Of a stretch of 64,000 nucleotides of DNA, positions 5,248-64,000 are shown piece by piece. The DNA lies in NCBI GenBank assembly GCA_041653675.1, contig JBAZEY010000003.1:13284-77283 (forward strand), written 5' to 3'. This DNA comes from Patescibacteria group bacterium (GTDB lineage: Bacteria; Patescibacteriota; Patescibacteriia; XYB2-FULL-38-15). Under the pieces are notes generated by a model that saw only the letters and a program-made list of their open reading frames with translations, had not been told where the DNA came from and searched no databases. Both the position numbers and the translations under genes were made by a program. Within the stretch, counting starts at the first letter, position 1. Every line of letters begins with the position of its first letter.

Positions 5248-5265
5248 TCATTAGATTTATATATT

Positions 5266-7991: not shown

Positions 7992-10900
7992 ATGTTTAGT
8001 TCAGGAGGAGAAAAACCTAATATTAAATTACCATCCCAAAGCGGAACCAACTTAACTTTGTTGGTGTTTGCTTTGGGTATTTTGTCATTAGCAAGTATTG
8101 GAGTAATGACTCTTTCTGTTGTGAAACAACTTCGGCCGACAGCGTTCACGGCAATTAATAAACAGCTGAACTATCAAGGTAAATTACAAAACGCGGGAGG
8201 CATAACGCTCGCGGACGGAAATTACTCAATGAAGTTTTCCATTTACGACGATCCAACCGTCGGCTCGAGACTTTGGACAGAATGTGGCACAGTCGGTACG
8301 CCGACGGCTCGTACCGTCGCGGTTGCGAACGGGGTTTTCTCGGTGATGCTCGGAGATACAAATTCCAATTCTTGTCCCGGTGGAACGGATTCCAACGCCA
8401 TCACACTGGATTTTAATAGTGACAGTTATTATCTTGGTTTTACCGTGGAGTCCGATTCAGAAATGCTTCCGAGAAAACGATTGGGTGCTTCGGGTTACGC
8501 TTTCAACGCGGATTTATTAGACGGATTTAATACTTCAGCCGCCGGCGGTTCGGTCGCTTTCGTGCCGGTGACGGACGCAAGCGGACATTTAACTTTGACG
8601 CAAAATTTAATTTTGGGTGGAGTTTTAAAAAATGCAGACGGTACTGTCGGCGCGCCGAGCTATACCTTCACGAGCGACCTTGATACAGGACTTTATTATT
8701 CAGCGACACAAATAAATATTGGTGTCGGCGGAAGCACGGTGGCAAATGTAAGCGCTTCGGGTTTAGCCGTAGATACGGTCAAAACTTTAACCGCGACGAC
8801 TTTAACTTTAAAAGGCACGGTTGCCGACGGCGGAACAGCTGTTGGCGCGACGATTGGTTCCAACAGTACTCTTTCTACTACCGGCGCGAAACTTGCTTCC
8901 TTTGTAAACAACACTACTGAGAAAGCATATATAGATAAAGATGGTTATTGGAACGCCCCTAATGGTGCGGCTGGCACTCCTTCAATTACTTTTGCAAATG
9001 ATAAAGATAATGGATTTTTTTATTCTTCCGCTAATAATTGGCGGGCGGTTGCTAACGGAACTGCTATTTTAGAATTTGATGCAAGTGGCATTTATGTTGG
9101 TGGTTCAGGAAACATAGGGTCAGGTAATAATATTACTCTTACTCTTAAGAGTTTTCAGGTCGATGGTGCCGCAAATGTTGCAGTTGCTCAGGATACTTAT
9201 TATGCGTTTGTAACTGCTGGAGCTAAACTTTTTTCTTGGAAAAATCATCAAGTTGAAAAAGCATATGTTGATTATCTAGGCTCGTTCAACGCCGGAGCGG
9301 GGACAAATCTTTTACCAGCGTATTCGTTTGTTGGCGATCCAAATACTGGAATATATAATCCGAGTGCAGACCGTGTAGATTTAGTCGCAGGAGGAACCGT
9401 TCAACTCGCAATAACCTCTGGCACTATTTATTTTGATAATATGAGGGCTTTGAACTTGGTGAGTCTTGGATTAAGAGGGGCGATTGCCGACGGAGCAAGT
9501 GCGATCGGCACAAAAATGGGAAATGCTATAGCTCTTACCACTGCTGGAGCAAAGATTGTAAGTTTTTATAATGATGCTTGGGTAACTGAAAAAGCATATA
9601 TTGATAAAGACGGAAATTTTTATGGCCCCGGGGCAAATTTTTCCGGTCTCTCTGTCTCGTCGGCTGTTTATACCGACGCTTCAAAAAATTTAACTTCTAC
9701 AGCTCCGGCCACGGGCACGATTGGATATTGGTCCCGCGCCACGACAACTTTGTCTCCAGCTACAGCCAATGATATTGTCGCGGTCACCGGCAACTCCGGA
9801 GATCTTTTAACTTTAACTTCAACCGCAACCGGCGCTTCTAACAAAGCTTTAAGTATTGCCGCTTCCGGCGCAACAGTTGGCACAGATTACGGCGCATATA
9901 TTTCAAATACCGGCGCGGCCACAACAAATGTCGGTCTCTACACGACCGCCTCTGGCGCAACAAATAACTACGCTGCGATTTTTGACGCGGGGTATGTTGG
10001 TATTGGTAATACAACTCCAACAGCGTCTTTGACTTTAACTCAGGCTGCCGGCACGACTGGCACTCCCTCAGCTTTTATTATTACGGGGGGTGCTCACACC
10101 GGAATAACTGCGGCGACAGAAGATATTGGGGTGAATTTAAATTTTTCAGCGAATAAAACTTGGGCGGCCGGCGCCGGACCATTGGCCACTCAAAGGGAAG
10201 TCGTGGTTCAAGCCCCAACTTATATTGGTGATGTAGGCGGAGCATTGACCATGACTGATGCGGCGACATTCTATATCTCTGGTGCGCCTACGGCCGGGGC
10301 GAATATGACTATTAGTAATCCGTGGGCATTATGGATTGATGCCGGAAATGTTAGACTAGATGGAAATTTAAAAGTAGATTCACTTTCCGCTTCCTCCGCT
10401 GTTTATACTGACGCTTCCAAAAATTTAACTTCAACCCCGCCTGCTACGGGCGCGATCGGATATTGGTCTCGTACCGGCACGACTCTCTCTCCCGCGACGG
10501 CGAATGATGTGGTTAATGTCGATTCCAATACTGTGGGTGCAGCTATTAGTTCTACGGCGACGAATAGTGGCGCGGTTGCAAACTCTGGCGGTAATTTTTT
10601 GGCTGCCGGAACTAGCGGAGCAATGGGCGTTTATGGTGGCGCGAGCGGCGCTGGCACGGTTTACGGTGTTTATGGCCAAGCTTCTAATCCTGGGGCAGTA
10701 ACAAATTATGGTGTTTATGGAACGGCCGCCGGAGATACGGGCGTCGGTGTTTTTGGCTCTGCTACGGACACTGGCGCAGCTATAAACTACGGCGGTTACT
10801 TTACGGCCGCTGGAACGGGTGGCGCAGTTGGTATTTATAGTGAAGCGACTGGAACTGGCGGTGCGGCTGTTTCCGGTCTAGCTAGTGCTACTACCAGTGC

Positions 10901-13900
10901 TCTTAATTTTGGCGGATATTTTGAAGCAAGAGGTGACCATAGCTGGAGCTTCGGAGTTAAGGGATATCTTCCGAATAGTGTTGACGGTAAGGCAGTAGTC
11001 GGACATGCTGCGGAAACGACATCAACAAATTATGGCGGTTGGTTTCAATCAGATGGCGCAACGGGCATTGGAGTTTATGGTAAATCAACTTATACATCAA
11101 CGGCGACTGTTAATTATGGCGGTTGGTTTAGGGCAGACGGTCTGGCGGGTCGCGGCGTTTATGGCGAAACGACCACTGTGGGAGCAACCATTACTCACGG
11201 CGGCGATTTTTGGGCGGCGAGTACGGGGACAAGTACAAGTGGCGCGCGCGGCGTAGCAACTGGCGCTGGAACGGTTTATGGCGTTGAGGGTCTTGCTCAA
11301 AGTACCGGCGCGGTTACAAACTTCGGCGGCTATTTTACTGCTAGCGGTGAGACTGGCCGCGGCGTTTATGGCATGGCTGACAACACTGCCGTTGCGGCAA
11401 CCAACTATGGCGGTCACTTTACGGCCGCGGGTGCAGGTGCCAACACTACAGGCGTTTATGGTGAAGGCAGCAGCTCCGGCGCGGTTACAAATTATGGTGG
11501 TCGCTTTATCGCTGCAGGTGAAACAGGCATTGGCGCTTATGGCAATGCGACTTCAACTGGCGCGACAGTTAACTATGGCGGAAAATTTTATGCTGGAGGT
11601 TCGGGAGGAGCATACGGCGTCTATGGCGAAGCCAACAATGTTTCCGGAACAAACTATGGCGTCTATGGCAAGGTAACTTCTGGTTATGCTGTTTATGGTG
11701 ACCACGGAACAGTTTTTGGTTATTTGGCTGATAAAAATTATGGAGTTTATGGCCAATACAGCGCGACTCAGTTTGGCTATATAGGCGATTCAACTTATGG
11801 TGTTTATGCCCGTGGGACGATTGGCGTTTATGGAACAGACGGAACAAGATATGGACAATTGGGAACGGGAAGTAATGGTGTGTATGGTTATTATGACGCC
11901 ACGCATTATGGTTATATTGGCGGCGCAACCAATGGTGTGTATGGCACTGGCGGCACAGGCGAAGGCGTGCGCGGCGAAGCAACGACTGGTTATGGCGTTA
12001 TTGGTTTAGCTAGCGATACCGGCGCGGTCACAAATTATGGCGGATATTTTTCAGCGGCCGGCGATACTGGTCAAGGCGTTTATGGAACAGCTCCTGACGC
12101 TGGCGCGGTTATAAACTATGGCGGATATTTCTCTTCCGCCGGTACAGGCACCGGCGCGACCGGCGTCCTTGGCACAACTGCTGCCGCTGGTACGGTTTAT
12201 GGCGTTCAAGGAAAAGCGACGAACACGGGCGCTGTCACAAACTACGGCGGATATTTCTTGGCGTATGGCGACACGGGCCAAGGTATCTATGCCGGTGGCA
12301 TGGATACCGGCGCGGTCACAAATTATGGCGGTTATTTTGAAGCCGCTGGCACAACTGGCCGCGCGGTTTTTGGTGCGGCTCTGGCAACCGGAGCGTCAAC
12401 TGCGTATGGTGGATATTTTACATCGGCAAGTGATACTGGCCGCGGCGTTTATGGCGCAGCGACTGATACCGGCGCGGTTGTAAATTACGGCGGATATTTT
12501 TCTTCTGCCGGCACGGGCACTGGCGCAGCCGGCGTTTATGGCACAAGCGCTGCCACGGGAACGGTTTACGGAGTGCAAGGTTACGCTTCAAACACAGGCG
12601 CTTACGAAAATTATGGCGGTTATTTTGTCGCCAATGGCACAACTAGTCGCGGCGTTTATGGTCAGGCCAATACTTCTGGCGCGACTGTAAGTTACGGCGG
12701 TTATTTTTCATCTTCTAGTACTGGCGCAGGCACAGCTGGCGTTTACGGTATAGGCGCCGGCGCGGGTACGGTTTATGGCGTTACTGGTTTAGCTAGCAAT
12801 ACCGGCGCGGTTACAAATTATGGCGGCGTTTTTTCGGCCGCTGGCACAACTGGCCGCGCGGTGTATGGCGAAGCAAGTAGCTCGGGGGCGACAGCGAACT
12901 ATGGAGGTTACTTTACGGCAGCCGGAACAGGTGGCGCTCGAGGCGTCTTTGGTACTGCCAGCGGTGCGAGCGGCACCAATTACGGAATTTACGGCAGCGT
13001 AACTTCTGCAACAGGCTACGCAGGTTATTTCACCGGCGGTTACGGCGTCTACGCGAGTTTGGCGCATATTGCCGGAACCGGAGCGGGCGGAGAAGAGCTT
13101 GACGTGGAAGGACAAATCCAGTTTGATCTTGATGGTACAACCGATACATTAATTGGTGTTTGTAAAAGCGTGGCTGATGGGGCGGGCGTGGAAGCTGATG
13201 TAGAATTCCGTGATTGTACTTCAACGCCTTCCGATATTGCCGAATGGTATGATACAACTGGCACTGAGGCCGGGGATGTTGTTGCGGCAACCGACGACAC
13301 AGTTACTTTCCAAGGTGAAATGTATGATCCATTAACTGGCTTGCCGCTCGGCACACAAGAAACTATTACGGCAACAATTTTGACTCCCTCATCAGAGCCG
13401 TATCAAAAAACACTCCTTGGCGTAGTTTCTACAAACCCTTATGAATCTTTTGGTAAGGGCGTGATCGATGTTTCACATTTGCCAAATCCAATAGCTGTTG
13501 TTGGCCGTGTGCCAACTAAAGTTTCCACTGAAAACGGCGTCATCCGTCCGGGCGATCCGATTACTTCTTCATCAGTTACCGGCGTGGGCATGAAAGCAAC
13601 TAAACCAGGCATGATTATTGGTTACGCGGTTGATCACTATTCTGGCGCTGGCATTGGAACAGCTTTTGTTAACATTAATCCAGGCTGGCATTCTGGTTTT
13701 GCTATAAATACCGACGGAGTGATTTCTTTATTTGATGATGATTTTACTTTTAATACTTCCGGCATAGCTGATGGAATAATTCAGGGATATAATTCCAAAG
13801 GCTTGGCGTTCCGCGGATCTGGTTGGGACGGTGCCGCGGCGCAAAATATAGAAATGAAAATTGGTAACGTTGTTACGGACGCGTCAAATTATAAATTATC

Positions 13901-17929: not shown

Positions 17930-18059
17930 TAATTGTAAAATTAGAGATGGAGATTAAGTGAAATTTGCTTTAAAATAAAGGATAAAGCCAATTTCAGGTG
18001 ACCTTCAACTTTTGGAGAACAACCGTTCCGCGAGAGGGCGGAACAAGGAGGATTTAGTG

Positions 18060-18665
18060 ATGAAGACGACGATGATCGCGATGGTGCTTGTTTCCGTGTT
18101 CGCGACTGGCTGCTGGGATAGCTACCAGAACTACGGCGAAGACACTTCGCCCCTCGCGACTTGCGAGGTCGAGGTGACGACGAACGTGGTCGAGGTGGTG
18201 ATCACGGTGGACGGCGTCGTGATCGGTGGCGTTGCGGAACTCGCGACGGGCATGCACACTTTCGCTGCTACGGCTCCCGGGTATTACCCGGCAAGCGTGG
18301 TTGCGGAAGTAACCGAAGCATGCGCTCCGGTCGAACTCCAGCTCTTCCCGGATCTCGCCGGTGACTACGATCTCGTGCTACACAATAGCATCTATGATCG
18401 GCTGCTGCTCCACCTCGACCAGGATGAGGAAGGCAACCTCGTCGGCTACGACTGGTACACTGATGATCCGGGACACAGCTTCCAGGATTTCACCGGCACT
18501 GTTTCGTTCGATGGAGAAGTTCATCTCCTCTCGGACGATTCGGTCCGGCTGAATCTCACTGGCCGCTGGACTCCTCCGGGAATTGGTGGCGTCAGCCGTA
18601 TCGTCGGCAACTGGACCTCCGCTGCGGGAGGCGACGGAGACTGGCTCGCCGAGTCGCGACCGTAG
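18060..18665 (+). CDS. GC-rich lipoprotein with a PEGA-like domain
   Basis: RBS AAGGAGG 10 nt upstream. Lipoprotein signal MKTTMIAMVLVSVFATGC. The segment VVITVDGVVIGGVAELATGMHTFAATAPGYYPAS fits the PEGA pattern. About 60% GC against a roughly 40% background. Confidence 0.6.
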   Translation: MKTTMIAMVLVSVFATGCWDSYQNYGEDTSPLATCEVEVTTNVVEVVITVDGVVIGGVAELATGMHTFAATAPGYYPASVVAEVTEACAPVELQLFPDLAGDYDLVLHNSIYDRLLLHLDQDEEGNLVGYDWYTDDPGHSFQDFTGTVSFDGEVHLLSDDSVRLNLTGRWTPPGIGGVSRIVGNWTSAAGGDGDWLAESRP

Positions 18666-18676
18666 GTTACGACTCG

Positions 18677-18736
18677 AACCGGCATCTGGCAGAAATCGTG
18701 AAGAACGATTCTGTCGGATGCCGGTGTTTTTATTTC
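18677..18736 (+). terminator. Long imperfect hairpin plus T-run; copy 1 of a duplicated 58-nt element
   Basis: ccggcatctggcagaaatcg tgaagaa cgattctgtcggatgccgg followed by tgtttttatttc. Near-identical to 20278-20336. Confidence 0.6.
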
Positions 18737-18834
18737 AGAAAATCTAAAGAAGCACGCCTTGACTTTTGAGACATAATATATATGATAACGGCATAGATGG
18801 TCGGCTAGAGGTAGCCGACACAAGGAGGAGAAAG

Positions 18835-20184
18835 ATGAAAAAGGGGAACGGAAGGATCAAGGGGCTCTTTTTGATCGTCATCGCGACGATCGCGATTCTC
18901 GCCTATGCCGCTTGTGGCGACGACGAGCAGTTGTGTCCCAGCGCAGGGGACTGCATGGGACGGGAGTGCGGGCCGGATCCGGTTTGCATGACATCGTGCG
19001 GTGCATGCTCAATCGGAGAAGCATGTTCGGCGGACGGGATATGTATGCCGGACTGCGTGTCCAACTGCGCCGGCCGCGAGTGCGGATGGGACCCGGTCTG
19101 CGGCAACATGTCTTGCGGGACATGCCCGGCGGATCGGCCCAACTGCAATGCCACTACGGGGACTTGTTCGACTGATGGCCCGGATTGTCCGGCAGACCGC
19201 GACTGCGCCGGCCGCGAGTGCGGCCTCGATCCAATCTGCAGCGTTTCCTGCGGGACGTGTTCGGGCGGTGAGACGTGCAGTTCATCAGGAAGATGTGTTT
19301 GCGCTCCCAACTGCTCCGGCCGCGAGTGTGGGCTTGACCCAGTTTGTAGCGTCTCCTGCGGGACGTGTTCAAGCCCAGAGACATGCACTCCATCTGGAAC
19401 GTGCAACTGTACCAGGAACTGCGCCGGCCGTGAATGTGGTCCCGATCCGATTTGTGGCGTTTCCTGCGGCTCGTGTTCAGCTGGCTCATGCACCACGACG
19501 GGCACGTGCACCACGTGTTCATCCGGCGCAACGGAGTCGTGCGCCAATCTTTGCGGTTCGGCTGGCACGCGGAGTTGTAGTGTTTCGGGCGAATGGGGGC
19601 GGTGTCAGGGTGGGACTGCTCTGGTTCCTGTGGCTCTTACGGATGACACCTACATCGACAACGACCCCCCAACTGTCAACCACGGAACCGAAGAATTCGT
19701 GATCATAGGAAAGGGCGTTGCCGCTGACCCACGTCGCCTAGCATTCTTCCGTTTTGATGCGGATTTGGATACGTGGCGGGCGGAGGGCGCCACGTCGATA
19801 ATTCAGGCCGACCTGAGCGTATACGTGAGTGACCGCTTAGGCAGTCAACTTGAACTCTATGGTCTCTCAAATACGACCGGTGGTACTTGCGTGTGGAATG
19901 AAGATACACTGACGTATTACACCCAAGTCACCGCAGGAAGCACGAACTGCTATCCGGACCCGCTTGGCTGGGTCTACCCCGACATTTCGATGATTGTGGA
20001 TTACTCGATGGGCTACGTGGATATCACGGCGTATGTCCAGTGGCTTTGGGACGGCGCGGAGAACGACGGCTTCATGTTGACGAACAATTCGGGGAGTTCC
20101 ACTCCGTTTGCACGGTTGATTATCAACAGCACCGAGAATTCCCGGGATCCACCGAGCGTTTTGGTGAGAGTATCCTGCGAATAG
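18835..20184 (+). CDS. GC-rich secreted/lipoprotein: about 7 Cys-rich repeats (C..GRECG.DP.C..SCG.CS) plus a C-terminal DNRLRE-like domain
   Basis: RBS AAGGAGGAG. Signal LFLIVIATIAILAYAAC. Repeats such as DCAGRECGLDPICSVSCGTCSGGETCSSSGRC. The C-terminal domain carries the DNRLRE-family landmarks (DDTYIDNDPPTVNHG..., RLAFFRFDADL, WNEDTLTYYT, VDITAYVQWLWDGAENDGFML, INSTENSRDPPSVLVRV). Confidence 0.6.
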   Translation: MKKGNGRIKGLFLIVIATIAILAYAACGDDEQLCPSAGDCMGRECGPDPVCMTSCGACSIGEACSADGICMPDCVSNCAGRECGWDPVCGNMSCGTCPADRPNCNATTGTCSTDGPDCPADRDCAGRECGLDPICSVSCGTCSGGETCSSSGRCVCAPNCSGRECGLDPVCSVSCGTCSSPETCTPSGTCNCTRNCAGRECGPDPICGVSCGSCSAGSCTTTGTCTTCSSGATESCANLCGSAGTRSCSVSGEWGRCQGGTALVPVALTDDTYIDNDPPTVNHGTEEFVIIGKGVAADPRRLAFFRFDADLDTWRAEGATSIIQADLSVYVSDRLGSQLELYGLSNTTGGTCVWNEDTLTYYTQVTAGSTNCYPDPLGWVYPDISMIVDYSMGYVDITAYVQWLWDGAENDGFMLTNNSGSSTPFARLIINSTENSRDPPSVLVRVSCE

Positions 20185-44700: not shown

Positions 44701-45555
44701 GTGAGTGAAGAAACGAATGGTTGCCAGGGTAGTGAGCCCGTGGTCGAGGACAGATCTGAAAATTGCGTCCCTGGCGTCGAAGAAGACGGGGGAAGCAGCG
44801 AAAGGCAGTGCGATACTCTTGAGGGTTTGACGCAGTCGAAGGCGCTTGCCGCTTTTCTCGGGCAGCTCAAGATTGTGGAGATCCCTCCGGGCGGACGCCT
44901 TTACCAAGAAGGCGACCTCATCTCGCAAGTCTGCTACATCGTGAGCGGCAGGGTCGAAGTCAAGGCGACCGGTGAATTGATCGCCACAGTAGAAAAGGGC
45001 GAGCTGCTTGGGCTGGAAGAATTTCGTTACCGCAAGGAGAGCCCGAAATATACCCAAGAAGCGGTAGCTGTTCTGCCAACCTCGGTTGTCTGGCTGGATA
45101 ACGAAGGCCTAAGGACAGTCTTGGACTTGAACGCGGATTGTTTGGCGGCCTACGTTCGGCTACAGGCCAGAGTGAAGAGGGCGATCGAAAAGAAGCTCGG
45201 CCAGCTCAAGATAGACAAGAGCAAGCTGGAGGTTAGGGTTGCCCGACTGGGGGTAGCTTTGGGAGCAACCCAGGAGCAGCTCGTCAAGCTGCAAAAGCCG
45301 CCGCAGCCGCCTCCACCGCCGCGCAAACCTCTTCCATCAACAGCACTTCTTGGAAAGTTGGATGAAGCGCGTCGGGTTATTCGCGAGATGGGCCAGCTTT
45401 TCGTCGCGAGGGCCACAAACCTCAAGAAACTGCTCGTGGCTTTGCACGAGTTCGCCACGAAACATCCAGACTGGGCCAAACAGGAGGATTTCGTCGCGTT
45501 CAAGAAGAGCTTCGAAGGGCTTGTAGAACGTGATTCTCAATTCAAGGTGCCGTGA
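44701..45555 (+). CDS. GC-rich cyclic-nucleotide-binding domain protein with coiled-coil and Pro-rich segment
   Basis: GTG start with RBS AGGGAGGA. cNMP-binding fold (YQEGDLISQVCYIVSGRVEVKATGELIATVEKGELLGLEEF...). PPQPPPPPRKP linker. Confidence 0.6.
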   Translation: MSEETNGCQGSEPVVEDRSENCVPGVEEDGGSSERQCDTLEGLTQSKALAAFLGQLKIVEIPPGGRLYQEGDLISQVCYIVSGRVEVKATGELIATVEKGELLGLEEFRYRKESPKYTQEAVAVLPTSVVWLDNEGLRTVLDLNADCLAAYVRLQARVKRAIEKKLGQLKIDKSKLEVRVARLGVALGATQEQLVKLQKPPQPPPPPRKPLPSTALLGKLDEARRVIREMGQLFVARATNLKKLLVALHEFATKHPDWAKQEDFVAFKKSFEGLVERDSQFKVP

Positions 45556-45600
45556 AGCGGCACGAGCCGGACACTTTCAAGAGGTGTCCGGCATTTTATT
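45548..45600. terminator. Double hairpin bidirectional terminator
   Basis: gtgccgtgaagcggcac plus gccggacactttcaagaggtgtccggc followed by attttatttt. Confidence 0.6.
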
Positions 45601-45693
45601 TTATAACTTAATTATTAAATTTTTATAAAAAAATTCTGCCGCGGCTTGTGGCTTTGGCAGAATGGTGAAAACGATGGCGGCTGCTCGAGTTCG

Positions 45694-46449
45694 TTACCCG
45701 CAGCCGATTGGCGGGCACTTCACGGCAGTCCAGATTCCGAGGTTGTCGCCACTTGGCGAAACGATCGCTTCGCCCGTGACGTGCGTCTCGTCCGTAAAAT
45801 GGCCGACGTAACTTGTGCTGCCCGACGAGAAATTGATTTGCCGGCCATGGATCGTTGGCTCGTAGTAACTCGAGATGGCAGTAATGTCTCGGCCAGTTTG
45901 GCTGGCGTAGACGGCGACCGGAAAGGGGAAAGTTGCCCCGCTTAGTTCCCAGGCGCCTTCAGCGTTGATGACACTTTTCACGATGTGCGGCGCACTGCAG
46001 ACTTCCGGTTGGCAATCAACACAGCCTGCATCAATCGCCTCGCAGTCGTTCGTCACGCAAGCTGTGACAGTAGCCTCTGGTTCTGTATCACCGCCGAGGT
46101 CAAGAATGTCAGCCGTGGTTTGGACGAGCGTCATGGCTTCTCGCCGCGTTTCGATTGACGCTTCAATGGGTGCGAGACTCACAAGCGACGAATCGGAAAC
46201 GCGCCACTCCACGTCCTTGATCAGGATTCCATCGGAATTGTAGACGTAGGCGTGGAGTTTGTAGGCGTCGGCGTTCGTGGTGTCGCCGGTTGGCACGGGA
46301 GAAACGTTGGCTTCCGTGCTCGGAGTGCAATCCGAGACGATCGCCACAGCCATGGCGACACTCGAGTCGTTGGGACAGCGTTCGATGAACTCGTTCCGGC
46401 AGCCGAGCGCCATCACGAAAAGAACCGCAATCATCATCTTCGTTTTCAT
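45694..46449 (-). CDS. GC-rich lipoprotein, possibly Ig-like (Big_2-like) fold
   Basis: RBS TAAGGAGGA with promoter TTGAAA-16-TAAAAT on the minus strand. Lipoprotein signal MKTKMMIAVLFVMALGC. Multiple Cys pairs. Confidence 0.5.
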   Translation of the reverse strand: MKTKMMIAVLFVMALGCRNEFIERCPNDSSVAMAVAIVSDCTPSTEANVSPVPTGDTTNADAYKLHAYVYNSDGILIKDVEWRVSDSSLVSLAPIEASIETRREAMTLVQTTADILDLGGDTEPEATVTACVTNDCEAIDAGCVDCQPEVCSAPHIVKSVINAEGAWELSGATFPFPVAVYASQTGRDITAISSYYEPTIHGRQINFSSGSTSYVGHFTDETHVTGEAIVSPSGDNLGIWTAVKCPPIGCG

Positions 46450-46516
46450 CTGTATCCTCCTTACTGATTTTATTTTAACAAACTAAAAATAAATTTCAAA
46501 ATTTATAAAATAAAAA

Positions 46517-46560
46517 AAGGGGCTTCCGCGCGGCGTTACGAAACACCTTGCGGAAGCCCT
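46517..46560 (-). terminator. Strong Rho-independent terminator (minus strand)
   Basis: gggcttccgcaaggtgtttcgtaacgccgcgcggaagcccc followed by tttttttatttt on the minus strand. Confidence 0.7.
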
Positions 46561-47140
46561 TGGTCCCTTGGGAGTTATCCTCCAGATTTCTCCTTTGAAT
46601 CTCTCCCGGGAGTCCTTGGTCAGGCGCCCTTGCCCAACCTCATCGGGGAGTTAACCCCGTCTGGTAGCCCGTTTTTTCCCATCGGGCTCGGGGCGGCATT
46701 TTTAGACCGGAGTGACTGACATGCTAGCCAGCACGCGATCTTAACGAGGTAACCGCCGCTTTTCACTGCGTTTACGGCGCCGCGCTTGTGACGGCGATTG
46801 CAGCACCCCGACGGGTCTGCTGATTCTGGTCTTGGGGCGCATTCCATTTTGTCCCCAAAACTCTGGTTGCCCGTCCACCAGGGATCAGACGATTTATATT
46901 GCCGCGCCGTCTGCCAGGGCGCTTTAACCCTCCGCTCTGATCTCCTTCCCTTGGTAGCGAAGATGTGGAGCCGCCGGTTATCTACCTCAATCGAAGCACG
47001 GCTCCGATCGCGCCGTTTTGCGGGCACTGGTTATCTCCGAGCTCAAACCAATCCCGCCCCCGGGTAGACGAATTTATGTCCGCGCCAGCCTACCTTTGGC
47101 GCTCTGCCGATACATCCCCGTGCCACCACCTCCTTCTGTG
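46561..47140 (-). other. About 600-nt GC-rich non-coding block ending at the terminator
   Basis: No ORF with protein-like composition in any frame (only Arg-rich artefactual ORFs). Many local hairpins. It is contiguous with the GC-rich island and could be a structured RNA or a decayed coding remnant. Confidence 0.3.
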
Positions 47141-53717: not shown

Positions 53718-54239
53718 ATGGTAACTTATAAAGAACAGCGCGTCGGAGTTTTTATCGACGTGCAGAACATGTATTATTCGGCGAAGAATCTTTACAATGC
53801 GAAAGTTAATTTTGGCAATATTTTAGAAACAGCGGTAGGAAATAGAAAATTAATCCGCGCCATTGCTTATGTTGTAAAAACAAAAACCGGCGAGGAAAAA
53901 GTATTTTTTGAAGCGTTAGAAAAATTGGGTCTTGAAACTCGTGAGAAAGAATTGATGGTTTATGACGGCGCGAAAAAAGCCGATTGGGACGTCGGAATTT
54001 GTATTGACTCAATCGCTTTGGCTGATCGGCTGGACGTGATCGTTGTGGTTTCCGGCGACGGAGATTTTATCCCGCTCGTGCAATATTTAAAAATGAATAA
54101 AGGTTGTCGGGTGGAGTCAATTGCTTTCCGGGAAACAACTTCCACAAAACTCGTGGAGACAGTTGACAATTTTGTAGATTTGAGCCAAGATAAAAGGCGC
54201 TACTTAATTAGCGGTCGGACAAAAAGAACGATAATTTAA
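53718..54239 (+). CDS. NYN-domain (LabA/DUF88-like, PIN-fold) ribonuclease-like protein
   Basis: VGVFIDVQNMYYS...VVVSGDGDFIPLV acidic signature. RBS AAGGAGG. Confidence 0.75.
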   Translation: MVTYKEQRVGVFIDVQNMYYSAKNLYNAKVNFGNILETAVGNRKLIRAIAYVVKTKTGEEKVFFEALEKLGLETREKELMVYDGAKKADWDVGICIDSIALADRLDVIVVVSGDGDFIPLVQYLKMNKGCRVESIAFRETTSTKLVETVDNFVDLSQDKRRYLISGRTKRTII

Positions 54240-56537: not shown

Positions 56538-57659
56538 ATGTTTTTTGAATTCTTCAAAAAATTTAAAACAAAAACCTTGCTATTTGCGGCAGGGTTTTTG
56601 GTTCTCGCGGGACTAATCAGCCTTTCACTTTGGTTTTATTTTAGTTTTTTAAAAAGTGATGGGTTGTTTTTAGAAGTTGTCCCGGCCAAATCATCAGTCT
56701 ATTGGCAAAGCGATTTTAGCAGGGGAGCTGACGATGTTTGGCTTTGGGCAACCACAAGAGCGATTCTCCCGGGGGAAGCGGCAAATCAGGCGAGGTTTTT
56801 GGAAGAATCTATTGCGCCAGAGGCAAGCAAGATTGGTTTTGCTATTTTGCCAGATTCCACAGATTTTATTTTCTTCGCCAAAATCGACGCCGGGGAATTT
56901 AATTTACAAAAAAGCAAGCTTGAAGAATTAAATTACCATTATATTTTTGAAGAAAATAATAGACTAATAATTTCAAACAGCAGGTCTGGTCTTGAAGCGG
57001 CGGTTGCGGTCTTAAGCCAAGAAGAAAAATCTTTTGCCGACGATAAAATGAAATTAATTTCTTTTAATGGGGCGAAACGACATTCTTCGGCACAAATTTA
57101 TTTTGAAAAAAACTTTAAAGTAGATACTTTTCTCCCCCTACCGTGGTCTTCTGATTTTTGGTCAAGCAATAAGTTGATCATAGCGATGAAAAGAGGAGTA
57201 AAAGATGAATACAATATCGCCGATTTTTATTTTTTGGCCGTTTCGGATGACAAATATCTTAAAAATAATATGGAGAATGTTTTAAAAGATGATTTGGCTG
57301 TTCTTCTTCCCGAAATCAGAGAGAAGATTTTACCCGATAATACGGTAGTTAAAGAACTTTTGGCCAATCCTGACGCTTTTAAATTCCAAGAGAAGAAAAT
57401 CGGCGGCTTTCCGGCCAGTTATCTTCCCGTGCCTGCCTTGAACCAAGAATTTTTTCTCGGGAAAGAGCGGCAAAAGACGATATTTGGAAATTCAGAAGAA
57501 ATGATTCTTGATTTTTGGGCCAATTCGGGGCACAAACCAGATTATTACGGTAAAAATTTGATAGAAGCACTTTTAGACGGACTAAAATGGCTGACAGCTG
57601 ATTTCGGAGGGGTTATTTTTGAGGTAAATGCGAGCAACGTACAAAATAAAGGTGATTGA
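56538..57659 (+). CDS. Membrane-anchored hypothetical protein
   Basis: RBS GGGAGG. N-terminal TM (LLFAAGFLVLAGLISLSLWFYF). The start was chosen downstream of the pnp stop. Confidence 0.5.
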   Translation: MFFEFFKKFKTKTLLFAAGFLVLAGLISLSLWFYFSFLKSDGLFLEVVPAKSSVYWQSDFSRGADDVWLWATTRAILPGEAANQARFLEESIAPEASKIGFAILPDSTDFIFFAKIDAGEFNLQKSKLEELNYHYIFEENNRLIISNSRSGLEAAVAVLSQEEKSFADDKMKLISFNGAKRHSSAQIYFEKNFKVDTFLPLPWSSDFWSSNKLIIAMKRGVKDEYNIADFYFLAVSDDKYLKNNMENVLKDDLAVLLPEIREKILPDNTVVKELLANPDAFKFQEKKIGGFPASYLPVPALNQEFFLGKERQKTIFGNSEEMILDFWANSGHKPDYYGKNLIEALLDGLKWLTADFGGVIFEVNASNVQNKGD

Positions 57660-57834
57660 TGTGATGAATGGCCAAAAATATTTTATGGCATTGCTCTGCT
57701 GGGTATGCCAACGAGCTTAAATTTTGTATGTTGTGGATAACTTGTGAACAAGAATCTTGTTCTCTTGGGGATAAGTAGCTTCTTATTTTGGGCTTAGAAA
57801 TGTTTTTTGTTTTAAATAAGCCAAAGTTTGAGGA

Positions 57835-57864
57835 TTGACAAGAACGCTATTTTCGTGGTATAAT
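57835..57864 (+). promoter_or_regulatory. Strong promoter TTGACA-18-TGgTATAAT
   Basis: ttgaca agaacgctattttcgtgg tataat. Confidence 0.55.
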
Positions 57865-57871
57865 ATTTATA

Positions 57872-58190
57872 GAACATTAAAACCAGAGACGTTTGGCTGA
57901 GAGTCAGCCACATTTCTCTCTTCTCTACTCTTCGTCAGAGGTCTTCTGCTGGCAAGACCTGACCCTAAAACAAAAACAAAAATTACTTTTTTGGTGAGTT
58001 CCCCTCTGGAGTTCACCACAAGAATGGTAGAGGAGTTTCTCGCTTTGAAGTCAGCAAAAAGCGTTCCTTCCCCCAAGACCGGTATCTCTTTAATCCTCTC
58101 CGGAGGACAAAAGGGTGTGTCGAGGGGGCAACAAGGGCGCAACGGCCAATTATTAATTATATTATTAAGGGCGCAGTTGCGCCCTTTTAA
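57872..58190 (+). ncRNA. Candidate structured RNA of about 310 nt (promoter, hairpins, terminator, no credible ORF); class unknown
   Basis: Hairpins ggctgagagtcagcc, gtcagaggtctt...aagacctgac and cctctccggagg. Terminator aagggcgcagttgcgccctt plus T. The 76-aa ORF inside has no RBS. Confidence 0.35.
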
Positions 58191-58276
58191 AGTTGAAATG
58201 CTAAGTAGGATTAATACTTGAAAAAAATAACCTCTTCATATATACTTAATTTAAATAAGATAATATTAAAAAATTA

Positions 58277-58681
58277 GTGTCGCTAATCTCCAAATTTATG
58301 GCAGTACAAAATAATCTTGATAAGGAATTTTTAAAGAAAATCGAAGATCAACTTTTGGCGGAAAAAGCTCGTTTGGAAAAGGAGCTATCCCAATTCACTC
58401 AAAAGAACCCACACAACGCGTCTGATTACGACGCTGATTTTCCAACAATTGGCGATGCGGAAGATGAAAATGCCGCCGAAGTTGCGGTTTATGGCGATAA
58501 CTTGACCTTGGAGAGAACACTAGAGTCGGCTTTGCGCGACGTAAATGGCGCCTTAAAGCGGATTGAAGATGGAACTTATGGAGTTTGTCGTTATTGTGGC
58601 AAGCCAATTGATCCAAAAAGATTAGAGGCCCGTCCGGCGTCATCTGCCTGTATGGAATGTAAATCAAAGTTTAGTAAATAA
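58277..58681 (+). CDS. DksA/TraR-family C4 zinc-finger protein
   Basis: N-terminal coiled-coil, and CRYCGKPIDPKRLEARPASSACMEC. Confidence 0.8.
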   Translation: MSLISKFMAVQNNLDKEFLKKIEDQLLAEKARLEKELSQFTQKNPHNASDYDADFPTIGDAEDENAAEVAVYGDNLTLERTLESALRDVNGALKRIEDGTYGVCRYCGKPIDPKRLEARPASSACMECKSKFSK

Positions 58682-58691
58682 GGTTTTTAGA

Positions 58692-59159
58692 ATGCCATTT
58701 TTTCGTAAAATAATGCTTATCAATTTTTTGGTAAGCATTTTGTTTTTTCTTGATCGTTTGACTAAGTGGTTTGCCTTGAAGATTCCCGAGGGGGGAGTTT
58801 TTTTGTTTTCGAAAAAGTTTATAGGATTTAATTTATACAAAAATTTTAATTTAATTTTTAATATTGTTCTTCCGGAATGGCTGATGTATAGCCTGATAGT
58901 TTTGATTTTAGCAGCTCTCGTTTGGCTTTTATTTAAAAATTACGCGCGGCAAAATATTTTCTTAATTTTTTCTTTGAGCTTAATTGTTGCCGGTGCGATG
59001 AGCAATTTGTTAGATCGGCTGTATTTTGGATTTGTGGTAGATTTCTTAAGTTTTTTTGATTATTCCATTTTTAATTTATCAGATGTTTATATTTTTAGCG
59101 GTGTTGGTTTAATTTTTATTGCAGAGTTTATTTTAAAGAGAGAAAAGATTAATAGTTGA
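58692..59159 (+). CDS. lspA: Lipoprotein signal peptidase II
   Basis: Four TM helices. SNLLDRL and FNLSDVYI motifs. Confidence 0.8.
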   Translation: MPFFRKIMLINFLVSILFFLDRLTKWFALKIPEGGVFLFSKKFIGFNLYKNFNLIFNIVLPEWLMYSLIVLILAALVWLLFKNYARQNIFLIFSLSLIVAGAMSNLLDRLYFGFVVDFLSFFDYSIFNLSDVYIFSGVGLIFIAEFILKREKINS

Positions 59160-59173
59160 AAAAATAAGGAGGT

Positions 59174-60214
59174 ATGTCTTCAAAAATTTTATCTGCGGCG
59201 ATTGTTGGATTAGACGCGGAACTTGTGGAGGTGGAGGCCGACATTTCGCCGGGACTTAGTCATTTTACGATAGTTGGTTTGCCGGATATGGCCGTGCAGG
59301 AGTCGCGTGAGCGGGTAAGGGCGGCTATTAAAAATAGTGAATTGCCGTTTCCCCGGACGCGCGTCACGGTTAATTTGGCTCCGGCCGATTTAAAAAAGGA
59401 AGGGCCGTCTTATGATTTGCCCATTGCCATTGCCATTCTTCTGGCTTCGAAATTTTTAAGATTACCGGCGGCGGCGAGTGCAAGAGAAACAGCCGGGGAA
59501 AATCTTGAACTTTTGCCGAGCACGAAAGCTGTGGCAAATCTCTTTTGTCCCCAATCTCTTTTTGTTGGCGAGTTGGCGCTGGATGGAATTTTGCGGCCGG
59601 TGAATGGAATACTGGCCATTGCTTCCGCCGCTCGGGCGAGGGGAATTAAAACTTTGTATGTTCCGGAAACTAACGCCCGAGAAGCAAGTTTGATCGAAAA
59701 TTTGGAAATTTTTTCCGTAAAAAACATTTTTCAGTTGGTAGAACATTTGGCGGGAAAAAATTTAATTGCGCCGTTTTCTCGTGAGGAACCTTTTAATTTT
59801 AACGAGCCAGTCGGAAGTGATGAAGAAAATTTTGATATGGCATATGTGCGCGGACAAGAGTATGCAAAGCGAGCTCTGGAAATTGTCGCCGCCGGTGGCC
59901 ACAACCTCCTGATGTCCGGGCCGCCTGGTTCCGGGAAAACACTGCTTTCAAAAACATTGCCGTCAATTTTGCCGGCGCTTACGATTGATGAGGCGCTTGA
60001 AGTAACAAGAATCTATTCCGTCGCCGGACTTTTACCGCCGGATTTGCCACTTATGACGCGACGGCCGTTTAGAAATCCGCATCACACGGCATCAAATGTC
60101 TCGCTCGTGGGCGGTGGAACTTGGCCGCGGCCGGGAGAAGTAAGTTTGTCTCATCGCGGAGTTTTATTTTTAAGAATCGTCCCGCAATTTATGCAAACAG
60201 TAGTATACTCATAA
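59174..60214 (+). pseudogene. comM: comM/yifB (Mg-chelatase-like AAA+ ATPase) truncated after the sensor-1 region by an insertion
   Basis: Lon-like N-domain plus AAA+ (LLMSGPPGSGKTLL). It reads GVLFL and then diverges (RIVPQFMQTVVYS stop) where LDELPEF and about 170 more residues are expected. Confidence 0.7.
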
Positions 60215-60306
60215 AACTACCAATACTCTCTGAAACCGATAGGAGACGGGAGGTTTTGGCCGTAAATCTGGGAATGCACGGCGCAAAAAGGACTTAGTGA
60301 AATTCT

Positions 60307-60348
60307 ACAAAATTCGACAAAATTCGACAAAATCCGACAAAATCCGAC
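60307..60348. repeat. Four tandem copies of ACAAAATYCG
   Basis: acaaaattcg acaaaattcg acaaaatccg acaaaatccg. Confidence 0.8.
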
Positions 60349-60388
60349 TAATTAGGGTAAAATATTTTGGGTTTTAGGAACTAAAATC

Positions 60389-60414
60389 AGACAAAAGCAG
60401 ACAAAAGCAGACAC
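60389..60414. repeat. About 2.6 tandem copies of CAGACAAAAG
   Basis: cagacaaaag cagacaaaag cagaca. Confidence 0.8.
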
Positions 60415-60504
60415 TTTTAGGGATAAATGTTGGGAATTTTACAAGTTTAGTATGGGACAGAACGTAACACCTTTATTAAAATCTAATTTTGCGGTAAAGT
60501 TAAA

Positions 60505-62190
60505 TTGATTTTAAGAACAACTATGGCTCGCAAAATAAACTATGACAACTGGTCAAAGGAAGAATTAGCCAAAGAATTACGCCGTATTAAGGAAACAAAA
60601 TACGGGCTTGTTTGGCATAGGGATTTGCCGGAAGAAAAAATTGACACGCTCATCAATCCTGACGCGCGCACGCCGAACGAAATGTTTCCGAATGAAATGG
60701 CCGGCAGGCCGTTTCCGATTTTGAAAGAAACCAAAGGCAAAGAGATAAACGGCGATAAAGGCAAGCCAGTAAATTTGCTTATTGAGGGCGACAATTATCA
60801 CTCGCTAGCGGTTTTAAATTTCACGCACCAAGAAGCGATTGATTTGATATATATCGATCCGCCCTATAACACAGGAGAAAATGACTTTATATACAATGAT
60901 AAAATGGTTGATAAGGAAGACCCCTTTAGACACAGCAAGTGGCTCTCTTTTATGGAAAAAAGATTAAAACTTGCTAAAAACCTTCTTAAATCTGACGGAG
61001 TACTTTTTGTGAGTATAGATGATAACGAACAAGCACCACTCAAATTATTATGCGATGAGATTTTTGACGACGGTCACTTTCTTGGAACTTTAACCTGGAT
61101 TAATAAAACGAAACCAGTTAATTCGGGTAAGGCGAAATATCAAATACAGCAGAATACGGAATATATTTTTGCCTATTCAAAAACAAAAAGAGAAGATTTT
61201 CTCGGCTTTGATTTAACAAAACAAGGGGAAAGAAAGTATGCTCTCTCGGACCAAGGAGGCGACTACAGACTAATAGACATCGAGGATTCTGATCGCGGGA
61301 GAAAAAAACGGGACACAATGAAATTTGAAATTTTGGGAATTAAGCCGGGAACCGGCAAGCGTTGGAAAATTGGACAATTGGAAATAAACAACCTGATAAA
61401 GACGGGTAGAATTGTTAAAGTAGAAGGAAAAATAAAAAGGAAGATATATAGTTATGAGGAATCAGGATTTGTTGAAAATCCTTTTTGGTCACATCTTGAA
61501 GCCGTTGGTACTGCCGAAGATGGCAAAAAAGAGCTCTCGGATATTATTGGGCAGGATCATGGCTTTGATACTGTAAAGCCCGTAAATTTGATAGAAAGTT
61601 TACTGCAGCATTTTACGAAAAATGTATGCGTCCTTGATTTTTTTGCTGGTTCGGGGTCGACAGGTCAAGCAGTTCTTGATTTGAATAAAGAAGGGGGCAA
61701 TCGGCGATTTATTCTTTGCACTAACAACGATAACAATATCTGCTTGGATGTCTGCTACCCTCGCTTAAAAAAAGTCATCAAGGGCTATAAAAATACCAAG
61801 GGCGAAAATATCGCCGGACTTGGCGGTAATTTAAAATATTATACTTGCGATTTTGTTGAGGCCGAACCGACTGACCAAAACAAACGAAAACTTGTGAGCG
61901 AATCAACGGAAATGCTTTGCATCCGCGAAAACGCTTTCGATCTAGTACAAGACGAAAGCGATTTTAAGATTTTTAAGAACGAAAAAAAATATCTTGGAAT
62001 TGTTTTTTACGAAGAAGCGATTGGCGATTTTAAAAAAGCGATTAAAAAGATTAAAGGTCATTTTAACACGTACGTTTTCTCGCTCGGCGACGAGCCGCAC
62101 GAAAAACAGTTTACTGATGTAAAAAGAAAAGTCACGCTCTGCGCCATCCCGGAAGTGATTTTGAAAGTTTATAGGGAGATTTTTAAATAA
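60505..62190 (+). CDS. Beta-class N6-adenine DNA methyltransferase (type III Mod-like), no Res partner
   Basis: Motif IV IYIDPPYNTGENDFIYND lies before motif I VLDFFAGSGSTGQAV. Also WLSFMEKRLKLAKNLLKSDGVLFVSIDDNE and TEYIFAYSK. Confidence 0.8.
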   Translation: MILRTTMARKINYDNWSKEELAKELRRIKETKYGLVWHRDLPEEKIDTLINPDARTPNEMFPNEMAGRPFPILKETKGKEINGDKGKPVNLLIEGDNYHSLAVLNFTHQEAIDLIYIDPPYNTGENDFIYNDKMVDKEDPFRHSKWLSFMEKRLKLAKNLLKSDGVLFVSIDDNEQAPLKLLCDEIFDDGHFLGTLTWINKTKPVNSGKAKYQIQQNTEYIFAYSKTKREDFLGFDLTKQGERKYALSDQGGDYRLIDIEDSDRGRKKRDTMKFEILGIKPGTGKRWKIGQLEINNLIKTGRIVKVEGKIKRKIYSYEESGFVENPFWSHLEAVGTAEDGKKELSDIIGQDHGFDTVKPVNLIESLLQHFTKNVCVLDFFAGSGSTGQAVLDLNKEGGNRRFILCTNNDNNICLDVCYPRLKKVIKGYKNTKGENIAGLGGNLKYYTCDFVEAEPTDQNKRKLVSESTEMLCIRENAFDLVQDESDFKIFKNEKKYLGIVFYEEAIGDFKKAIKKIKGHFNTYVFSLGDEPHEKQFTDVKRKVTLCAIPEVILKVYREIFK

Positions 62191-62202
62191 AAAATCGAAA
62201 AT

Positions 62203-62388
62203 ATGAGCAGACAACAAACAAATTCTGGACAAATAAGGAAAAAAAGAGAGGACACCCTAATCAAGAATATCGAGAAAAAGTATAATGTTGATTTTGGTGT
62301 ACGCGATGATATGAAATTAGGCACTTACTTAAGGGAAAAAGGACTGCCGTCGCTTTCCAAAGCTATAGAAAAGGTAACAAAGGAATGA
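62203..62388 (+). CDS. Small hypothetical protein (61 aa)
   Basis: ORF only. Basic N-terminus. Confidence 0.3.
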   Translation: MSRQQTNSGQIRKKREDTLIKNIEKKYNVDFGVRDDMKLGTYLREKGLPSLSKAIEKVTKE

Positions 62389-62391
62389 TAT

Positions 62392-62904
62392 ATGATATCA
62401 GAAGCTTTTAAGAGAAATGTTTTATGGAATCTTGAACAAGTTGCTGTTCAGGTTGGCCATGCCGAAAAAGTTAGGACTAGAGCTAGAAGCGGATATTATA
62501 AAGCTGCTATAATTTTAGCCGCTGCTATCGTCGAAGCACTTGTGTATAAAATTTTAGAACAAAATAATACCCTGAAGATGCCGCTGGAAGATTGGCGATG
62601 TATTCGTTCAAATTTTTTGTCTCAGCGGTATAAAAGCGACAAAGGAGAGAGACTAAGTGTCTGTGAAAGAATAAGACCACAGTTTGAATTAAATAAACAA
62701 ACGGATTTTAAAAAAGTTAATGAAGTATGTCTTGCTTTAAAGATATTTCCAAAAAAAATTTTTAAGAAAATAGAAAAAATTAGAACATTGAGAAATAAAA
62801 TCCATATTCAGGGGCTAGATAATATAGATAGGAGTTATACAAAACATGAGCTGGAATTTATTTCGTCCGTAATGGATGAGTTACTTAGTAAAATAAAAGC
62901 ATAG
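62392..62904 (+). CDS. Hypothetical protein, possible HEPN-like (C-terminal R-x6-H)
   Basis: RTLRNKIH near the C-terminus, in an alpha-helical context. Weak. Confidence 0.3.
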   Translation: MISEAFKRNVLWNLEQVAVQVGHAEKVRTRARSGYYKAAIILAAAIVEALVYKILEQNNTLKMPLEDWRCIRSNFLSQRYKSDKGERLSVCERIRPQFELNKQTDFKKVNEVCLALKIFPKKIFKKIEKIRTLRNKIHIQGLDNIDRSYTKHELEFISSVMDELLSKIKA

Positions 62905-62981
62905 GCATTTAACATGAGGCATGGAAAAAACAATTAAACTATGTTGATTTAATTTAAAGATTATTTTTAAAAATAGCTTAT

Positions 62982-63950
62982 ATGAAAGAACCAATAAAAG
63001 AATTAGCTAATGTAGAGAATATAAAAGAAGATTTGATTAAAGAATTTGAGCGATCGTTAAATGAATTTAAGAAAAAAGTTGATTGTTTTATTTACCCGCT
63101 AATTATCCCGCCGCTTAATAGCATAGACGAAGATGTACTTTTCGAAGTTTTTCCTGATTTGAAGAAAATAGGAAAACAAAAACGTTTACACGTGCTTTTG
63201 TATTCATATGGAGGTGATGCCCACACAGCATTTCATATAGGTCGCCTTTTGCAAGATTATGCTACAGAGGAGTTATATATTTATATTCTGAGAGAAGCTA
63301 AGAGTGCAGCAACACTGTTAGCGAGTTCAGCTGACAAGATTATTTTTTCTGAAATTTCAGAATTGGGGCCGATGGATCCTCAGATTAAAGATTCCGAGGG
63401 AGGAGAAAGATTTAGTCCGCTTGCCATAAAACATGTTATGGATTTTTTGTCCGATGAAAGCAGAAAAGGACATTCAGAGCTAGTCAAGACACTGGCCGCG
63501 AAGTTACCAACGACGCTTCAATTAGGAGAACATTTGAAATCCCTAGAAACTGGAAAAGATTATCTTTTCAAACTTCTTAAGACTAGAATGTTTAAAGAAG
63601 ATAGCGATGAAATTGTGCAAAAAATTGCAGAAAAGTTAGTGACGGGATACCCGGATCACGGTTATTGTATTGATTTTAAAGAAGCGTTAGAGATTGGCTT
63701 AAAAGTTGAAAAAGTTGATCCAAAAATAGAAAATGAACTTTTTTCGGTTATGGAGAATTATAAAAAAGTTTGGGATACATTTGAAAAATTGATACGAGAC
63801 GCAAAAAATAGAGATGATCAAAAAATTAAGGATGCAATGAAATTATTGAAAGGGATTAGAACCGTTGCGACTAATATTATAGAAGGTGAAATTAAAGAAA
63901 ATCTGGAACCAAAAAATCAAGGCAGCACTGAGTTAATAGAACAAAGATAA
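62982..63950 (+). CDS. ClpP/crotonase-fold serine-protease-like protein
   Basis: LHVLLYSYGGDAHTAFHIGRLLQDY...KSAATLLASSADKIIFSEISELGPMDPQI follows the ClpP/SppA fold pattern. Confidence 0.5.
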   Translation: MKEPIKELANVENIKEDLIKEFERSLNEFKKKVDCFIYPLIIPPLNSIDEDVLFEVFPDLKKIGKQKRLHVLLYSYGGDAHTAFHIGRLLQDYATEELYIYILREAKSAATLLASSADKIIFSEISELGPMDPQIKDSEGGERFSPLAIKHVMDFLSDESRKGHSELVKTLAAKLPTTLQLGEHLKSLETGKDYLFKLLKTRMFKEDSDEIVQKIAEKLVTGYPDHGYCIDFKEALEIGLKVEKVDPKIENELFSVMENYKKVWDTFEKLIRDAKNRDDQKIKDAMKLLKGIRTVATNIIEGEIKENLEPKNQGSTELIEQR

Positions 63951-64000
63951 ATTTATGTGGGTTGAATTTAAAGATTATCAAGAAAAAGCCATTGTAAAGT

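Follow-up and report, generated by a model that had tools for sequence, protein, structure and literature searches.

Among prokaryotic defences restriction-modification (R-M) systems are the commonest, and a layered immunity has come to light through genes lying inside them (PrrC, the Rlo genes and many HEPN clades). For HEPN proteins, 16 or more clades have a link to R-M (Anantharaman et al. 2013, PMC3710099), the studied case being PrrC (PMC12707154), found in the type Ic EcoprrI system, and operons of R-M genes that harbour a HEPN gene are a known kind. In the type III systems EcoP15I and EcoP1I a beta-class methyltransferase, Mod, is encoded upstream of an SF2-helicase restriction subunit, Res, having a PD-(D/E)xK-like C-terminal motif. 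The locus considered here lies near the end of a 64,000-nucleotide stretch (the window) of contig JBAZEY010000003.1 from a Patescibacteria group bacterium and shares these features, but differs in having three genes between mod and res and a short Res of 745 aa. The three are p61 and p170, named for the lengths of their products, and the gene of a ClpP-fold serine protease belonging to the SDH family. By analogy with PrrC in EcoprrI the locus is read as a layered R-M operon with accessory cassettes, a reading to which a probability of roughly 0.7 is given.

Purely as an R-M system the locus is nothing out of the ordinary. The Mod has DPPY (motif IV) at residue 112 before FAGSG (motif I) at 374, the beta-class order, and a central target-recognition region, and over 590 aa it shares 39% identity with the Mod of L113, a type III locus. 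Its likely start is the ATG at 60523 (giving 555 aa, as called on contig L004) and not the TTG at 60505 where the open reading frame opens. A res gene begins with an ATG at 63955 (MWVEFKDYQEKAIVK...), 4 nt past the protease stop, and is truncated by the window end. Its full length comes from L001 (positions 3367-5604), a 14.8-kb contig of another sequencing run's assembly that was retrieved by an exact-protein look-up and has 0 mismatches to window positions 60589-64000 over 3,412 bp. The complete Res matches PF04851 (ResIII, 5.7e-19) and the PADLOC model REase_III (3.2e-22), carries a Walker A GSGKT, a DESH and, at residue 678, a C-terminal FDTKG resembling PD-(D/E)xK, and over residues 477-706 matches NF046055 (the BPTD_3080 restriction endonuclease family) at 1.4e-8; along its full length it is 31% identical to Res747 of L113. 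The REase_III models cover residues ~150-410 only, the Pfam search gave no match to PF19778 (RE_endonuc), and a sequence search against PDB chains gave none either. With a beta-class Mod and an SF2 helicase-like Res downstream on the same strand, three genes intervening, the locus can be called with fair confidence a type III R-M operon in the order mod, p61, p170, protease, res.

Successive gaps from mod to protease are 12, 3 and 77 nt, and 4 nt separate protease and res; as the five share one direction and lie 3-77 nt apart, co-transcription is most likely. Promoter and terminator scans of the locus found nothing above chance, which weighs against the operon in that the spacing is what speaks for it.

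The original prediction, made from the window alone, had rightly described four co-directional open reading frames starting with a beta-class, type III-like Mod, but had taken that Mod to be solitary, and it tentatively grouped Mod, p61, the HEPN-like protein and the ClpP-fold protease as one methylation-sensing abortive-infection system. HEPN-type genes and the protease do co-occur with methyltransferases in several loci. However the Mod is no orphan, as res follows it, and the four-gene block of mod, p61, p170 and protease is found only in assemblies of the same strain, its parts being separate elsewhere. PADLOC models match only the R-M parts, the middle genes giving nothing aside from one marginal match to PDC-M69A (E 0.0087, the sole PADLOC match for p61 or p170), and nothing supports the proposed epigenetic sensing. 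A single four-gene system is therefore highly improbable. The prediction had also named what would overturn it, a Res gene just beyond the window with unrelated cargo downstream of the Mod: the Res is indeed there, but random cargo fits poorly with a protease clade that is found in restriction loci in nine of nine contexts, as described below.

Between mod and res there is a slot for interchangeable accessory cassettes, because orthologous backbones carry different inserts, and in the window it holds two of them in tandem. The type III backbones of loci L007 and L111 are orthologous (Mod 58% and Res 65% identical), and the same mod-res slot holds p61-p170 in L007 and an SDH protease gene with a DUF3800 gene in L111. 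The R-M genes of the window are orthologous to those of L113, in which an SDH-DUF4145 pair lies upstream of mod and a DUF3800 gene between mod and res. The GC content of mod (0.387) and res (0.384) compares with 0.36, 0.324 and 0.338 for the three inserted genes. This difference would also be expected if the system were an ordinary type III R-M whose three middle genes, a selfish toxin-antitoxin pair and a stray protease, were unrelated passengers of a permissive slot having only their transcription in common, and it is known that clustering of defence and addiction genes need not mean interaction. Such a passenger explanation is nevertheless considered rather unlikely: the pair is met again between the mod and res of a type III system unrelated to this one (L007), and further points on both sides come with the distributions of the pair and of the protease.

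In reference genomes p61 stands immediately upstream of p170, with gaps of a few nt, in all ten full-length copies (nine loci), and p61 is an obligate upstream partner of p170. There are 49 p61 homologues, many of them on the same contigs as p170 homologues. With the window proteins as tblastn queries Mod, Res and the protease were not detected at those nine loci, but a Pfam search of L007 revealed divergent mod and res genes, missed by tblastn, that flank the pair, which there sits between a type III Mod755 and Res887. In L016 the pair is two genes downstream of a 628-aa methyltransferase in the same gene string, with a PD-(D/E)xK protein near, and in L019 it adjoins a trypsin-like protease on another element, which also encodes a serine recombinase and an HTH_36 protein. 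At other loci it is alone among housekeeping genes, and this, like its presence on other elements, is what passengers would show. Overall p61-p170 is an independently mobile and tightly coupled cassette. The trypsin-like protease of L019 (PF13365; 6832-8534) is directly upstream of p61-p170, which makes two cases of the pair with a serine protease as neighbour. Two diverged copies of p61-p170 were seen on one 13-kb Peribacteria contig (L010, 2756-3483 and 7484-8208).

Small, adjacent, co-directional genes whose pairing is kept across unrelated contexts are what a type II-like toxin-antitoxin system presents, and p61-p170 has this form. The tight coupling, patchy multi-copy distribution and mobile-element location suggest a toxin-antitoxin or abortive-infection pair, with p61 in the position of an antitoxin. 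As with HepT-MntA and RnlA-RnlB, a small gene (here 3 nt upstream) precedes a HEPN-like gene and the distribution is patchy, sometimes multi-copy and often mobile, and HepT structures are among the best fold matches of p170; in contrast to those systems p61 is not an MNT nucleotidyltransferase and is without a known antitoxin fold. Several observations weigh against a toxin-antitoxin role or against a role tied to restriction. The p61 model (predicted local distance difference test score, pLDDT, 81) has no meaningful fold match among PDB structures, p61 shows higher conservation than p170, an unusual feature in an antitoxin, and the pair is often without an R-M system nearby, such that its presence here may be opportunistic. 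That p61 is a controller (C) protein of the R-M system was considered and rejected, since it always accompanies p170, also where no R-M system is present. Searches of Pfam, NCBIfam, PHROGs and PADLOC gave no match for p61, and those of Pfam, NCBIfam and PHROGs none for p170; the module is newly noticed and no annotation of it was found.

The p170 protein is probably HEPN-like. The HEPN superfamily has a core of four up-down helices, in many cases with an insert between helices 2 and 3. The AlphaFold2 model of p170 (pLDDT 90.8) has long helices at residues 3-25, 29-57, 121-138 and 151-165 with a beta/alpha insert, and its best PDB matches by Foldseek are almost all HEPN proteins (YutE, HepT, AF0298, the sacsin HEPN domain and Csm6). 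Across 55 diverse members of the family E48, R134, N135 and H138 are invariant and K37 and R131 nearly so, the motif R131-x2-R134-N135-x2-H138 closing helix 121-138, with a loop and then the final helix after it, and E48 lying in helix 29-57. HEPN domains carry Rx4-6H where helix 3 ends, and a conserved acidic residue in helix 2 (PMC3710099). The motif and the acidic residue of p170 are at the positions expected from this, and R131-x6-H138, the R-x6-H on which the original prediction had based its HEPN-like assignment, fits Rx4-6H. At 50% identity the family falls into 412 clusters, whose proteins all stand alone and are ~170-210 aa long, and single distant members match DUF4145 (1.3e-4) and a HepT-like family (9e-3). 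On the other side, the Foldseek matches are weak (E 0.045-1, with 0.045 the best value, and template modelling scores of 0.4-0.6), and the spacing from the invariant R134 to H138 is x3 and non-canonical. Profile-profile comparisons with the DUF4145 proteins found beside the protease were not significant (E 0.81 and 0.67), although the second of these runs aligned the R..N..H motif regions. The p170 profile had no match among PDB chains and the model nothing significant among viral structures. Metal-independent RNase activity, as is typical of HEPN RNases, is a prediction for p170.

The embedding of a HEPN-type gene inside an R-M operon recalls PrrC in EcoprrI, and a two-layer logic of that kind is plausible here. 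Yet p170 is a single domain without the N-terminal ABC-ATPase of PrrC and RloC, and in Pfam and profile-profile comparisons no relation of p170 to PrrC or a Pfam HEPN family was detected; p170 stands outside the PrrC/RloC group but may work alike. It differs from PrrC also in always coming with p61, and in that the pair frequently has no R-M genes for neighbours.

The third inserted gene encodes a protease which, besides the PF01972 match, matches NCBIfam Clp_like_SDH (3e-16) and phrog_11747 (5e-36), and the ClpP/SppA fold of the original prediction is borne out. In the PF01972 SDH family the catalytic triad has the order Ser-Asp-His. The triad of this protease, S108-D132-H226, is intact and in that order, and together with G77-G78 (the oxyanion motif) it is invariant across 37 sequences down to 28% identity. 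By its score against the NCBIfam equivalog NF047768, which at 59.6 is far below the threshold of 250, the protein is assigned to a divergent SDH subfamily.

Its close relatives, with mutual identities of 46-84%, form a clade for which nine of nine distinct contexts are restriction loci: four of type III, two of type I, one Eco57I-like with DpnII/MboI, one MmeI, and one with an EcoRI methyltransferase and GmrSD-HNH, together spanning types I, IIG/IIL, III and IV (gene orders in Table 1). For distant SDH relatives (27-46% identical) R-M neighbours were found in ~10% of 61 loci, a control in which 136 neighbours of at least 165 aa within 3 kb were scanned and in which R-M Pfam families were still the commonest matches, each in only 2-4 neighbours. 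In the window, L026 and L029 the R gene directly follows the protease gene, at +4, +8 and -4 nt respectively. A HEPN-type gene, DUF4145 or p170, accompanies the protease in four of the nine contexts; DUF4145, a HEPN family, accompanies it in three R-M loci (L029, L113 and L115), and the protease is without p61-p170 in the eight contexts other than the window. DUF3800 also accompanies it in three R-M loci (L024 10513-11211, L111 7951-8571 and L113 11110-11826), and since this domain, which resembles RNase H2, is associated with type VII retrons (PMC7736814), the co-occurrence would fit a set of effector-like accessories. The accessory set of SDH protease, DUF4145-type HEPN and DUF3800 recurs with both type I and type III backbones. 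These associations, namely the nine of nine contexts as compared with ~10% for distant relatives, the frequent placement 4-8 nt from or overlapping the R gene and the recurring set, are hard to reconcile with middle genes that are unrelated passengers. Against a general link of the clade to restriction it should be said that the nine contexts were picked for long contigs, are few and are mostly from Patescibacteria.

IMG/VR viral contigs contained no close-clade relatives, in plasmid and phage collections the only relatives were distant ones at 30-32% identity, and the protease profile gave no match among PDB chains. The unannotated neighbours of 385, 463, 466 and 499 aa had no significant mutual similarity, except for a weak one between L115_158 and L024_466, and the notion that they form a common family was rejected on that ground. 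A literature search for PF01972, SDH or ClpP-like proteases in R-M loci found no relevant paper, subscription-only papers being outside its coverage, and the R-M-linked SDH clade appears undescribed. Many distant SDH relatives in metagenome loci (L032-L110), mostly without R-M neighbours, have a 72-89-aa open reading frame overlapping or directly following the protease gene, and the two make up a conserved gene pair of their own.

Quite what the protease does in these loci may be approached from the ClpXP alleviation of type I restriction, where a ClpP-fold protease is likewise tied to a restriction enzyme. The degradation of HsdR of type IA and IB systems by ClpXP is an established mechanism (PMC12707154), and a self-encoded counterpart can be envisaged, as the main alternative for the protease, that would degrade or clip the R subunit so as to avoid self-restriction on entry of the mobile system to an unmodified host or after DNA damage. 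Apart from this precedent, the placement directly upstream of the R gene would agree with such a control, as would the location of the loci on mobile elements (a serine-integrase element and an integrative and conjugative element, ICE). But the protease of the window differs from ClpXP in being encoded inside the R-M locus, in belonging to the SDH family and in accompanying types I-IV alike, and an AAA+ unfoldase gene was found neither in the operon nor in the eight other protease loci. Further, the protease remains 46-84% identical across unrelated HsdR, Res, MmeI and GmrSD-HNH partners, which disfavours the specific recognition of an R subunit; it does not adjoin the R gene in L113 and L115, and GmrSD and MmeI do not have the same establishment problem. 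Restriction control by the protease thus seems unlikely, if less so than the single four-gene system. A broader proposal, that the SDH clade (at least ~46% identical) is a dedicated proteolytic component of type I, II and III R-M systems, in many cases accompanied by a DUF4145-type HEPN protein or DUF3800, which either controls the R subunit or destroys a phage or host protein, with the mod-res gap as an exchange slot, is put forward tentatively, at somewhat less than even odds. The protease may have a part in defence or in the regulation of restriction, and it is plausible that R-M, the HEPN protein and the ClpP-fold protease are linked in function.

For the layered operon with accessory cassettes the course of events would be as follows. 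Mod would methylate the host DNA and Res would cut unmodified incoming DNA, so providing the first line of defence; cleavage in type III systems is ATP-dependent and requires two unmodified sites in inverse orientation, and their Mod hemimethylates. Two cassettes, each mobile on its own, p61-p170 and the protease, would have entered the gap between mod and res; the pair would then serve as a backup or addiction module on the model of PrrC in EcoprrI. The substrate of the protease would be one not specific to any one R-M system, for example a phage or host protein, because the proteases stay highly similar while their R-M partners are barely alignable or of different types, and because there is no unfoldase nearby.

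The region from mod to res is carried by an integrative element of 11.4 kb that splits comM, since the continuity with L001 supplies res, the replication genes, the integrase and the 3' part of comM; the island cargo of the original prediction has here a defined carrier. The gene comM encodes a Mg-chelatase-like AAA+ protein and is broken inside the Walker B motif (...GVLFL/DELPEF...). Its 3' part (PF01078 and Mg_chelatase_C) follows the integrase at L001 11004-11618, and across the junctions the two halves rejoin as VLFL/DELPEF. The left junction is at 60172/60173 and the right at L001 11009/11010, with TA/TTA common to both, and comM is the integration target in a Patescibacteria genome. Downstream of res, L001 carries in this order a LOOT RNA, three genes that are small or unannotated, a replication initiator with HTH_36 (phrog_270), a DnaC-like loader (phrog_50), the serine recombinase and the comM 3' part. 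The integrase is a 600-aa large serine recombinase with PF00239 and PF07508, a match to phrog_95 (7e-110) and a Zn-ribbon, and is CcrB- and XisF-like. With this recombinase, which has Resolvase, Recombinase and Zn-ribbon domains and stands at the element end beside the split gene, the element resembles the large-serine-recombinase elements SPbeta in spsM, the skin element in sigK and SCCmec with its Ccr recombinases, but it differs in its comM target, in its small size, in the absence of structural phage genes and in having a replication initiator and loader. The latter two genes make the element probably replicative. Its identification as a prophage was rejected, the PHROGs search having returned no structural genes.

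Just inside the left end a repeat search (60299..60413) returned one family, D1, of six copies at 10-nt spacing, and these 10-bp-period repeats (Table 1) may serve the element's replication initiator as iterons, or else be operators. The LOOT RNA (Rfam RF03000; 77.6 bits against a gathering score of 46.4) lies directly 3' of res at L001 5785-5905, window-equivalent 66373-66493, and is closed by a terminator-like hairpin at L001 5903-5918; an Rfam scan of window 57000-64000 gave no match.

Table 1. Features of the comM-splitting element and its target in the window (upper rows, window coordinates) and gene orders around the close SDH protease clade (lower rows, from window / L001 onwards).
Feature or locus	Position	Strand	Description
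comM 5' fragment	59174..60172	+	PF13541 and PF01078, profile positions 1-123 of 207 only
Left ~3.8 kb of 11,425-bp integrative element	60173..64000	+	continues to window-equivalent 71597
Tandem repeats, 10-bp period	60299-60349	+	AAAATTCGAC-like, 5 copies; upstream of mod, just inside element left end
Tandem repeats, 10-bp period	60383-60413	+	AAAAGCAGAC, 3 copies; upstream of mod, just inside element left end
mod, beta-class N6-adenine DNA methyltransferase, type III	60523..62190	+	PF01555 1.7e-35; PADLOC MTase_III 5e-74
p61	62203..62388	+	61 aa, small basic three-helix protein, directly upstream of p170
p170, HEPN-like predicted RNase toxin/effector	62392..62904	+	170 aa, fold matches and conserved motif
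SDH-family ClpP-fold serine protease	62982..63950	+	322 aa; PF01972 51.7 bits, cut-off 31.3
res, first 46 nt	63955..64000	+	truncated by window end; L001 3367-5604 gives full 745 aa
Window / L001			Mod - p61 - p170 - SDH - Res745
L024			Eco57I-like methyltransferase-nuclease - DpnII/MboI - SDH - 466 aa - DUF3800
L026-28 (Nanosynbacter)			Mod570 - 385 aa - SDH - Res914
L029-30 (Kaiserbacteria)			HsdM - DUF4145 - HsdS - SDH - HsdR - YgjP
L111			Mod754 - SDH - DUF3800 - Res893
L112			MmeI - 499 aa - SDH, on an ICE
L031			EcoRI methyltransferase - SMC-like - DUF2130 - GmrSD/HNH - SDH
L113-114 (Ignavibacteria)			81 aa - SDH - DUF4145 - 164 aa - Mod630 - DUF3800 - Res747
L115			HsdM - SDH - DUF4145 - HsdS - HsdR

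Away from the element, three parts of the window (10001-13000, 18001-20000 and 45001-47000) have a GC content of 0.51-0.60 against a window mean of 0.43. At 53718-54239, between rpsO and pnp, a NYN-domain protein is encoded, a predicted RNase (PF01936 on the identical gene of L004).

For the Patescibacteria (the Candidate Phyla Radiation, CPR), a group with poorly characterised mobile elements and defence, the locus provides a small, defence-carrying element that integrates into comM through a serine recombinase. The p61-p170 cassette is a two-gene module with a HEPN-like component and as such a testable lead. The most valuable leads seem to be the restriction-linked protease clade and the cassette-exchange slot, and the clade in particular points to a proteolytic layer of R-M beyond that of the host ClpXP.

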